Part shown: piece by piece, positions 6,201-9,200 of the stretch
How positions within the stretch are numbered: the first letter of the stretch is position 1
How the letters are laid out: every line of letters begins with the position of its first letter
DNA from: Escherichia coli
GTDB taxonomy: Bacteria; Pseudomonadota; Gammaproteobacteria; Enterobacterales; Enterobacteriaceae
NCBI RefSeq assembly: GCF_017348835.2
Contig: NZ_CP071375.1
Reading direction: 5' to 3' (one strand)
Length of the DNA stretch: 64,000 nucleotides
Position numbers: made by a program

Positions 6201-9200
6201 ATTTACTTTCAGATCTCGCGGTACACATCTCCCACGAAGAAACCCTTCCATTTCGAAAACATTCATGCGCATTTGCGTAACTCCGATAACTCGTTAAAGC
6301 GTTCCATAAACATCCCGTAGGCATGGCCCGGTGCCAGTGGAATCACGTTGAACATCTCTGTTGCCGGGATACCTTCCAGTACAGGCCAGAAAGAGCCATC
6401 ATCAAGCCCGAGATCGCGGCGTTCGGTTGCCAGCATGATGAGATCGGCATATTTCACGGGCGTACTCATAACTGGGGGTAACCCGTATTTCTCACGGATT
6501 ACGGCGTCTATTTTTTCTTCCATTTGTTTATAGTCAGGAAGAAGGCGTTTCAGTGGTGCGGGAATGTCCTGGCAATTCGCTTCTGTTGCATCATGCATTA
6601 ACGCTTCAAAAGCAAATTCCTGCGGCACCAACTGGCTGCAAAGAACCGCATGTTGGGCGACGCTGTAGAAGTGCGAAAGATGACCGGCAAAGCGACAGAT
6701 ATTTGAAAGGGAAACCGCGATATCGTTAATATCGATGTCGTCTTTATTTATCCTGTCATAATAAAAATGCTTCCCGGAAAAAGTTTTAATAAATGACATT
6801 TTGTTCTCCACGTATATGCGCTGCACCGCGCTGAATTTTGGTTAAAGAAAACCCTCGCCATCAGGCGATTATTGAGTTAATTACGTTTCTATAAATGCCC
6901 CCGCAGGGGCATTTGCAGTAATGAAATCAGGCGGTGAAAGTACCAATAAAGGTTTCTACTTTGCTGTCTTTGAATTTTTCAACAAGCAGATTACGAAATT
7001 CGTTAGCCATTTCTTCCTGTACTGCTTCCAGCTGAATAATGCGCAGAACCAGTACAGGGCGATCACCAGTGATAATGCTGAGGCGTAATTTAAACGGACG
7101 TTCTTTCAGGCCTTCAAACGGAACGCATTTAAACTCAAATGCTACTGGCATAATGTCTTTAGTTTTCGCTTCGACAGACTCCATCAGAGAGCGTTTGCCG
7201 CTGAAGTCATTGTCTTCAAAATCAGCGGTCTGGTTTGCTTCAATCGTGATTTTACGGACCGCCGCAGCCGCTTTTGTTGCCTGAATGGCGTCACCATTAG
7301 CATCAAAGCCCACAAGGTAGTCGGCCCAGTCTTCAATCCATTCTGCCAGTGACTTCTGGGAGTTACGCTCGCCGTTAACAGACAACAGGGCAGAGAACGG
7401 TGCTGTCTTTTTCAGTTTGAGAGTGGCGGTGTTATCTGCGTGACCTGGTTCATCAATAGTACCCAGGTTAAGCACACTGACGGCTCGCATATTATCAGCA
7501 TCGATAAAGCAGCGGGTGCCTTCATCTGCAAGATCTTTAGAATAACGGATAAAGTCATCGATGCTGGCAGTGGAAAGCGCACCACGGAAACGGAAGCGAT
7601 TTAAATTAAATTTTTCCAGATCATGAATGCGGAAATTCTCAGGCAATGCCACAGCATCGGCACCAATCTTACTGATAATTTCATTAACACTCTGAGCAGA
7701 AATAAGGGCATGGATTTGATTAATTTCGGTTGCGTCTAAGTTCTGAGACATAATAAGTCCTCACTATATAAAGATATTCAGTGATGAGATAAATAATCAG
7801 TTAATTAAGAACGATATTAATGACCTGCTGCGCGGAGTTTTCCGTCAGGTTCACCGGCAAGAGTCAGTAATTGTCCCTGGTCTTCCTGCAGAATAGTCAG
7901 GCGACCACCGCGATTGACATACATCGGTGTTTCGGTGGTGTCTTCTTCGGAAATTTTCCCGCGGTTAGTCGGGCGAACATATGAGAGTTTGTGTTTGATT
8001 TTCACACGGTTCTCATCAAATGGTTCGATTTCCAGGTTGAGCGAGACCTTACCTTTGGTTTTCGTGTTCATCACACCGGAAGCGACTTCACTGAGAACTG
8101 CGCCGATTTTGGTTTCAAATACGCCGCCGTCCAGCTCCCCGATAAATGCCTGCACATCAGTACTGCGTTCGCTAGCCATTTTGCTGCTCCTCATCATATC
8201 GACCCTGCAAGGTCGGTTATCGCACGGCTGGAAGCAGAAGGCTGGTTAACGCGTAAGGCGCGTCGCCAGGGTAACGGCTGGGAGACGGCGACAGAGCTTG
8301 TTGAAGATACGCAGGCCATTCTCCGTTACGGTCGTAACGTCACGAAGATGGATGCCTTTGGCTGTACCAGCCGGGGGCAGGCGCACCGCGCCGGGCTGTG
8401 GCTGATTAAAACGGAACTACTGGAAACGCAGACCGTGGACTTCAGCGTGGGTGCGGAAGGGCTTCGCCATGTGCCGGGCGATGTCATTGAAATCTGCGAT
8501 GATGACTATGCGGGGATCAGCACCGGCGGGCGCGTGCTGGCGGTGAACAGCCAGACCCGGACGCTGACGCTCGACCGTGAAATCACGCTGCCATCCTCCG
8601 GTACCACGCTGATAAGCCTGGTTGACGGAAGTGGCAATCCGGTCAGCGTGGAGGTCCAGTCCGTCACCGACGGCGTGAAGGTAAAAGTGAGCCGTGTTCC
8701 TGACGGCGTTGCCGGATACAGCGTATGGGGGCTGAAGCTGCCGACGCTGCGCCAGCGCCTGTTCCGCTGCGTGAGTATCCGTGAGAACGACGACGGCACG
8801 TATGCCATCACCGCCGTGCAGCATGTACCGGAAAAAGAAGCCATCGTGGATAACGGGGCGCACTTTGACGGCGACCAGAGCGGCACGGTGAATGGTGTCA
8901 CGCCGCCAGCGGTGCAGCACCTGACCGCAGAAGTCACCGCAGACAGTGGGGAATACCAGGTGCTGGCGCGATGGGACACACCGAAGGTGGTGAAGGGCGT
9001 GAGCTTCCTGCTCCGTCTGACCGTAACAGCGGACGACGGCAGTGAGCGGCTGGTCAGCACGGCCCGGACGACGGAAACCACATACCGCTTCACGCAACTG
9101 GCGCTGGGGAACTACAGGCTGACAGTCCGGGCGGTAAATGCCCGGGGGCAGCAGGGTGATCCGGCGTCGGTATCGTTCCGGATTGCGATGATTAATCCTG

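Follow-up and report, generated by a model that had tools for sequence, protein, structure and literature searches.

In Escherichia coli, how does the interior of a phage tail gene come to lie beside the start of an early prophage gene on the opposite strand? This question is raised by a stretch of 64,000 nucleotides (the window, from contig NZ_CP071375.1), in which plus-strand DNA homologous to the lambdoid tail gene J adjoins the start of the minus-strand gene yfdP at a distance of less than 100 bases. A preliminary description had seen here an abrupt junction in a cryptic prophage remnant. Comparison with intact relatives indicates that the site is very probably a compound deletion scar inside a thrW-integrated lambdoid prophage. 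The left arm of the remnant consists of the following features:

4125..4202, plus strand: thrW, tRNA-Thr(CGU) (ARAGORN, Rfam)
4155-4202: attachment core (attL), the 3' 48 bases of thrW, which also form attR of A0 34/86
4215..5333, minus strand: tyrosine integrase, intact (PGAP protein accession the same as in A0 34/86; integrase matches in PHROG)
5255..7751, minus strand: HTH/excisionase-like gene, yfdT, yfdS-like gene, yfdR and yfdQ (PGAP)
7817..8179, minus strand: yfdP, intact, 120 aa (WP_000135680.1; phrog_204)

As expected for a defective prophage, the integrase gene lies beside a tRNA gene that ends in the attachment core. Over the 4220 bases from 4000 to 8219, identity to the intact A0 34/86 prophage is 99.88%, and the YfdP protein WP_000135680.1 is unchanged across all strains examined. 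The start of yfdP, previously given as 8179 or 8197, could be settled: the ATG at 8179 is preceded by the Shine-Dalgarno sequence GAGGAG (8187-8192), while the ATG at 8197 is merely an in-frame codon upstream and was discarded.

Two intact-looking thrW prophages, those of A0 34/86 (~45.8 kb) and VTB97432v, served for comparison; both are like the remnant in attachment site and in the gene order of both arms. From the left, the intact order is int, an xis-like gene, yfdT/S/R/Q/P, a leader of ~690 bp, repressor, cro, ymfL, a DUF4222 gene, an O-like gene and yfdN; then follow Q, lysis, terminase, head and tail genes, J, lom, stf, tfa, moron genes and attR. The A0 34/86 prophage encodes integrase and YfdP proteins identical to those of the remnant, its attR repeats exactly the 48 bases with which thrW ends, and its thrW locus also holds tandem integrase remnants. 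The VTB97432v prophage encodes an identical Tfa protein, and its right arm lies between thrW and paoD, matching the position of the remnant. Unlike the remnant, both have the stretch of 29-31 kb that separates the yfdP leader from J codon 408, a full J, a full stf and attR.

Alignment of the junction to these relatives resolved it into three segments:

8180..8219, minus strand: kept native yfdP leader, 40 bases, with the Shine-Dalgarno sequence GAGGAG and a weak 5-bp hairpin (exact identity to the A0 34/86 sequence, L005)
8218..8275, plus strand: remnant of a phage O-like replication-initiator gene, 58 bases, approximately codons 60-79 (58/58 to L005 12953-13010)
8272..9186, plus strand: first J' segment, approximately codons 408-712 of the 1159-aa J (BLAST; PHROG central tail fiber J)

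On the left, positions 8100-8219 match the native yfdP leader of A0 34/86 at 100% (L005, ending at 10220), and the first joint, at 8218-8219, shares the microhomology TA. The filler that follows derives from an O-like gene (L005 CDS 12774-13715, 313 aa; phrog_391 "replication initiation O-like", E = 5.5e-135), to which BLAST aligned the fragment over 65 bases at 96.9% (E = 4e-26 pairwise and 5e-22 against 28 Gb). The second joint, at 8272-8275, has the microhomology TAAC, and the O' filler shares its reading frame with J'. Identity to J is exact from 8272 (~codon 408), the BLAST alignment starting at 8266 and the J pseudogene called by PGAP at 8273; positions 8266-9186 match the intact J of strain 200164 (L006 6001-6921) at 99.8% over 921 bases (E = 0). 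The yfdP leader, the 58 bases of O' and J' stand in native order and orientation, collinear with the parental arrangement.

The earlier proposal to align the region 8100..8300 against intact prophages thus proved useful in that breakpoints and microhomology could be located, but the single simple join that it anticipated was not there. Two breakpoints instead of one lie within 8218-8275. J, which had been said to begin at about 8200, is exact only from 8272, ~70 bases further right, and yfdP does not stand directly against it, the 40-base native leader and the 58-base O-like filler lying between them. What held of the original observation is that plus-strand J sequence adjoins the yfdP start.

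The microhomologies at the first, second and third joints and at the stf joint (the last two are described below) are TA, TAAC, CCGGATTGC and AA. This is the pattern of microhomology-associated deletion, but the 2-bp cases are not above chance. With a uniform base composition, the chance probability is 0.16 for at least 2 bp, 0.016 for at least 4 bp and ~3e-5 for at least 9 bp; only the 4-bp and 9-bp matches are above chance. A hairpin-driven breakpoint was considered and found unconvincing, the stem CGACC/GGTCG at the first joint being weak (-4.1 kcal/mol, z = -1.9), and no notable structure was found at the remaining breakpoints. A hidden RNA element at the junction or in the leader that was deleted was also rejected: the only Rfam matches were the tRNA, the frameshift pseudoknot of the IS, and IS009 within tfa, and a search of the intact prophage leader gave no match.

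Relative to the intact prophages, both arms are present and the essential interval between them is gone, the loss amounting to ~29-31 kb in total; the exact parent was not found, so that this and the following deleted sizes are estimates. At the first joint ~2.7 kb are missing, comprising the promoter and leader, the repressor, cro, ymfL, the DUF4222 gene and the 5' end of O. The second joint accounts for ~26-28 kb with the remaining replication genes, Q, and the lysis, packaging, head and proximal tail genes. The absence of regulation, replication, lysis, head and most tail genes had been reported from the window alone, and indeed none of them lies between yfdP and J' when the intact relatives are taken as reference. 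The deleted interval contains a predicted strong leftward promoter (TTGACA-16-CATAAT, 11/12 matches, L005 10829-10802), which is probably a pL-like promoter. Its loss would leave the yfdP-to-int operon without its native leftward promoter.

To the right of the first J' segment, the remnant continues as follows:

9178..9874, plus strand: second J' segment, the C-terminal part including the stop codon (alignment to intact J)
9893..9912, plus strand: terminator-like hairpin in the interval between J and lom
9942..10541, plus strand: lom (Ail/Lom outer-membrane beta-barrel), intact (PGAP; phrog_108 1-199 of 199, E = 1.6e-109)
10568..10589, plus strand: terminator-like hairpin 3' of lom
10600..12417, plus strand: stf, side tail fibre gene, 605 codons open (PGAP: partial gene and 'phage tail protein')
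12417..13001, plus strand: tfa, tail fibre assembly gene, intact (WP_000885605.1; phrog_105)

The two J' segments meet at a third joint (9178-9186), where a 9-bp repeat, CCGGATTGC, marks an in-frame deletion of 657 bp from J. A further in-frame deletion removed 1260 bp from stf at 10739/10740, with the microhomology AA. Of the surface or host-interaction genes that the earlier reading saw as retained, lom and tfa are intact and stf, with its 1260-bp deletion, is not; lom is followed by the terminator-like hairpin at 10568..10589. The J-lom-stf module is nearer to the prophage of strain 200164 (99.8%) than to that of A0 34/86 (96%). Tfa WP_000885605.1 is identical in the intact VTB97432v prophage, and tfa together with the 400 bases downstream is 100% identical to that thrW prophage. 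Since the left arm is 99.88% and J' 99.6-99.8% identical to intact relatives, the deletion is recent.

An open frame of 627 codons (7991-9874), noted in the earlier reading, runs back antisense across yfdP to a GTG at 7991; it arises because the J frame extends through the filler and the antisense strand of yfdP. The only in-frame starts for O'-J' are this GTG, inside yfdP, and the ATG at 8348, and no plus-strand promoter-like site was found near the junction. An expressed O'-J' fusion was rejected, there being neither a promoter-like site nor a credible start. In the PGAP annotation, 8273-9874 is a pseudogene of J without the N-terminal part, and both J' (8273-9874) and the frame 7991-9874 are best treated as pseudogene sequence.

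The remnant ends on the right at an insertion sequence and the chromosomal gene behind it:

13309..14618, plus strand: IS3-family element of 1310 bp, the right boundary of the remnant, which we take to be IS629-like from this length and its terminal repeats (ALIL frameshift pseudoknot, Rfam)
14619..16420, minus strand: paoC, truncated by 397 nt at the 3' end and joined directly to the element (alignment to VTB97432v)

The terminal repeats of the element are TGAACCGCCCCGG. It lies between GTC and TCT and lacks a target-site duplication; a second copy, at 49765-51074, has one, TAT. Position 14619 aligns to position 21735 of the VTB97432v sequence (L012), where paoC occupies 21338-23536, and relative to VTB97432v 9.3 kb are absent, including attR (core L012 18634-18658) and paoD. 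The end of the element thus abuts non-contiguous DNA and lacks a target-site duplication, as is seen in IS-adjacent deletions. The preliminary description had found no right attachment site in the window and had suggested a search past the element for a duplicated 3' end of thrW. The 48-base core is indeed single-copy and lies at thrW only; fuzzy searches with 48-, 30- and 20-mers found no second core in the window or in the 31 kb of RefSeq sequence beyond the second IS copy. No right site is visible because the IS629-like element, fused to truncated paoC, replaced attR. With a single core and with the attR region replaced by IS-paoC', the prophage would have lost the capacity for excision.

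According to PGAP and PHROG, the gene content of the remnant comprises int, the xis-like HTH gene, yfdT-P, J', lom, stf' and tfa only. A phage satellite (PICI, cfPICI or P4-like) would be expected to bring a replication or primase module of its own, genes for packaging redirection or capsids, and two att sites; the annotated content does not agree with this, and attR is lacking. Judged by its genes, the remnant would be incapable of induction, replication, lysis, particle formation and excision, and lom, the shortened stf and tfa would persist as passengers. The intact relatives and the attachment-site search both support the initial idea of a cryptic thrW lambdoid remnant in which an internal deletion fused the early arm to the interior of J.

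We then considered how widely this junction occurs. Among 5,426 complete E. coli genomes, one contains the full 126-base junction, and none carries the first joint alone or the second joint alone. The stf joint occurs in one of these genomes; the third joint is contiguous in PE164 (a pig isolate, NZ_CP114128.1) only, among the matches listed. Neither the first nor the second joint was found in metagenome contigs. A megablast search of 7817-8700 against 50,697 phage records gave matches to the J part only and no yfdP-J arrangement. It had been foreseen that a contiguous native arrangement in intact phages would overturn the deletion reading; such a gene order was found neither in these phage records nor in many lysogens.

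Other fusions of an early region to J were found in EC01440 and FY26 (yjjG-prfC site) and in CUPS03 (thrW), the last keeping the repressor and a partial cro. Their left breakpoints correspond to L005 10281, 10318 and 11798, respectively, which is 101, 138 and ~1,620 bases upstream of yfdP, and their J breakpoints to approximately nucleotides 2713, 2827 and 1783, with microhomology of 1-4 bp. In all three, the right breakpoint falls in the distal two-thirds of J, and lom and tail-fibre genes are kept. They differ from the remnant described here in their breakpoints and in having no O-gene filler. Their integrases and sites differ, the CUPS03 fusion being at thrW, and neither of the two prfC-site remnants is derivable from the other. 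Since breakpoints differ between strains, each scar arose independently, and no conserved module is involved. A widespread convergent architecture was discarded as an explanation, because a chimeric query of yfdP with J3'/lom, built so that fusions of this sort would rank at the top, retrieved three fused genomes only, plus CUPS03. A natural mosaic boundary at the breakpoint was likewise dismissed, as intact phages are homologous up to L005 10365, past all three nearby breakpoints. The decay pattern joining an early region to J therefore recurs but is rare, at ~4 of 5,426 genomes.

If the arrangement were instead the native layout of a functional phage or satellite, J' would be a genuine shorter tail-tip or host-range gene. 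The frame open from 7991 to 9874, the in-frame state of all three events (O' filler, J deletion and stf deletion; chance 1/27) and the similar yfdP-J'-lom-stf arrangement in EC01440 and FY26 could be read in this way. We nevertheless regard it as highly improbable: the layout is absent from all 50,697 phage records, the exact junction is present in 1 of 5,426 genomes, breakpoints differ among strains, the only starts are the antisense GTG and the ATG at 8348 with no promoter-like site, J' is called a pseudogene by PGAP, and replication, packaging and capsid genes are lacking together with attR. Very unlikely, in our view, is an inter-prophage event, in which the left arm and the J'-lom-stf-tfa arm of two prophages, in tandem at thrW or elsewhere, were illegitimately joined. 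The J' arm has its best match in strain 200164 (99.8%) and A0 34/86, with its near-identical left arm, reaches only 96% there; moreover, the integrase remnants at thrW in A0 34/86 are in tandem. However, lambdoid J-lom-stf modules are mosaic, so that differing best matches are expected, and the three segments keep the order and orientation of a single prophage. The complete identity of tfa and the following 400 bases to the VTB97432v thrW prophage, whose right arm likewise lies between thrW and paoD, also argues against two sources.

A chimeric assembly between repeated lambdoid sequences deserves attention too, since an E. coli genome holds several similar J genes (median of 3 matching places) and the PE164 RefSeq record and the window differ structurally nearby. 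Over positions 1-14618 the window and the PE164 chromosome are 99.98% identical. Beyond the element at 13309-14618, the window continues with paoC'-paoB-paoA-yagU, a K-12-like order, whereas in the PE164 record the segment flanked by two inverted IS copies is inverted relative to the window, prfH is split and an extra IS1 is present. As both carry the yfdP-J junction, two non-identical sequences contain it. The breakpoints lie outside repeats, with 2-4 bases of microhomology and a unique filler, and the flanks run into single-copy chromosome on both sides (thrW-proA on one, paoC beyond the element on the other), which makes an artefact hardly credible.

The compound deletion scar could have arisen as follows. 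The joints would have been made by RecA-independent illegitimate recombination at microhomologies of 2-9 bp, through slippage, template switching or break-and-join. Either two successive deletions occurred, or a single template switch during replication may have left the O fragment as filler. The private deletions of 657 bp in J and 1260 bp in stf would have come later or in parallel, after which attR would have been lost to a deletion next to the IS or to recombination of two IS copies with each other. Selection against lethal phage functions, acting on survivors of induction, plausibly favoured the loss.

Whether this decay is non-random can also be asked. At least four independent lineages are known, all of which keep int-yfdTSRQP and lom-stf-tfa; the left breakpoint lies at most 140 bases from the yfdP start in three of the four fusion lineages. 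Such a pattern could come from a hot spot for deletion, or from selection favouring a minimal module in which a C-terminal J product, a shortened Stf/Tfa product or Lom is still used; this seems to us very unlikely. Clustering of breakpoints near yfdP and the three in-frame events are too weak for a claim of selection or of a hot spot. If the decay were non-random, such remnants might supply tail fibres in trans, act as a reservoir for host-range recombination with co-resident lambdoid prophages, or provide a surface factor.

The significance of the locus is mainly one of annotation, as a resolved young example of a lambdoid prophage becoming a fixed remnant. It could offer a worked case for prophage decay, in which microhomology deletions carry a filler, J and stf have undergone secondary in-frame losses, and attR has disappeared beside an IS. 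Scars of like type in three more strains hint at a common decay route.

The nearest known counterparts are the cryptic lambdoid prophages of K-12, above all Rac, whose right end (tmpR'-lomR-stfR-tfaR) has a truncated tail gene beside lomR-stfR-tfaR. Like the remnant, Rac, e14 and Qin keep the early arm next to the integrase and, on the right, lom/stf/tfa; internal deletion has cost the K-12 cryptic lambdoids, too, their genes for regulation, replication, lysis and morphogenesis. In these as well, a shortened tail gene abuts lom, IS elements are involved and excision is impaired. The remnant differs from them in its thrW site, its private breakpoints and the 58-base O-gene filler, and in that attR was wholly lost to the IS629-like-paoC fusion. 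Moreover, its identity of at least 99.6% to intact relatives marks it as very young, and it was found in one lineage only.

CPS-53, with another integrase and a gtr/tfaS arm, occupies the argW site, whereas the remnant is a thrW-integrating lambdoid with J-lom-stf-tfa. CPS-53/KplE1, from which the names yfdP to yfdT are taken, and the remnant have in common the yfdP-yfdQ-yfdR-yfdS-yfdT cluster. In K-12, chromosomal replication initiation is inhibited when yfdQRST of CPS-53 is overexpressed, and YfdR is a DnaA-binding protein (PMC4776307). Grounded prophages have been described as having resected att sites and then degenerating by deletion (PMC6379469), a description that the remnant fits. As far as its sequence tells, the locus is a private instance of a well-known class of defective, non-excisable prophages.

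We compared the window with two stretches (L001 and L007) of the RefSeq record of E. coli PE164 (NZ_CP114128.1), and positions 13307-42494 were found not to be collinear with it. In RefSeq PE164, a segment of ~18.5 kb flanked by two inverted IS629-like copies, one inside prfH and the other at the right end of the prophage, is inverted relative to the window, which carries the uninverted order thrW-prophage-IS-paoC' (paoC' being the truncated paoC). Either close isolates are truly polymorphic for an IS-mediated inversion, or the difference stems from the assembly versions. The window itself also holds a second IS629-like copy:

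49765-51074, inverted relative to the copy at 13309-14618: IS629-like copy 2.

The two copies, which we call IS629-like from their length and terminal repeats, differ by 1 base. The copy at 49765-51074 has the 3-bp duplication TAT on both sides and is adjoined by hyx/adhesin pseudogenes in the RefSeq annotation.

Moreover, RefSeq PE164 carries a 768-bp IS1 (L007 855-1622) that is absent from the window at 41641-41649, where the alignment overlaps by 9 bases; this overlap is consistent with an IS1 target-site duplication. The fdeC gene, which encodes an inverse autotransporter adhesin, is a pseudogene with an internal stop according to the RefSeq PE164 annotation (L007 2874-7127; window ~36145-40398).

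Within the prophage remnant, the reading frame is preserved by the 657-bp deletion in the tail-tip gene J (9178-9186), by the 1260-bp deletion in stf (10739-10740) and by the O'-J' fusion; all three events would do so by chance with a probability of 1/27. In the complete genomes searched, the J and stf deletions were found in this lineage only (for the J joint, among the matches listed). In the 3' half of tfa, a full-length match to the Rfam family IS009 (RF02111) was observed at 12760-12958 on the plus strand; its score of 226 bits exceeds the family's gathering score (117), and this family probably derives from conserved tfa sequence.

The intact thrW prophage of strain A0 34/86 possesses a strong leftward promoter-like site (L005 10829-10802), and the interval holding this site and the stretch between it and yfdP is deleted in the window:

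L005 10181-10868 (A0 34/86): interval containing the unannotated leader of ~620 nt from the promoter-like site to yfdP.

Neither an ORF of note nor an Rfam match was found in this leader.

Accessory genes, known by annotation alone, were also seen at the right ends of related prophages and remnants, in A0 34/86 and in EC01440, a strain with an independent early-to-J remnant. A0 34/86 carries a type II restriction-modification pair (L008 10436-13112), and EC01440 a reverse-transcriptase gene paired with a SLATT-domain gene (L002 14910-16809), which, as annotated, looks like a retron-type defence system.
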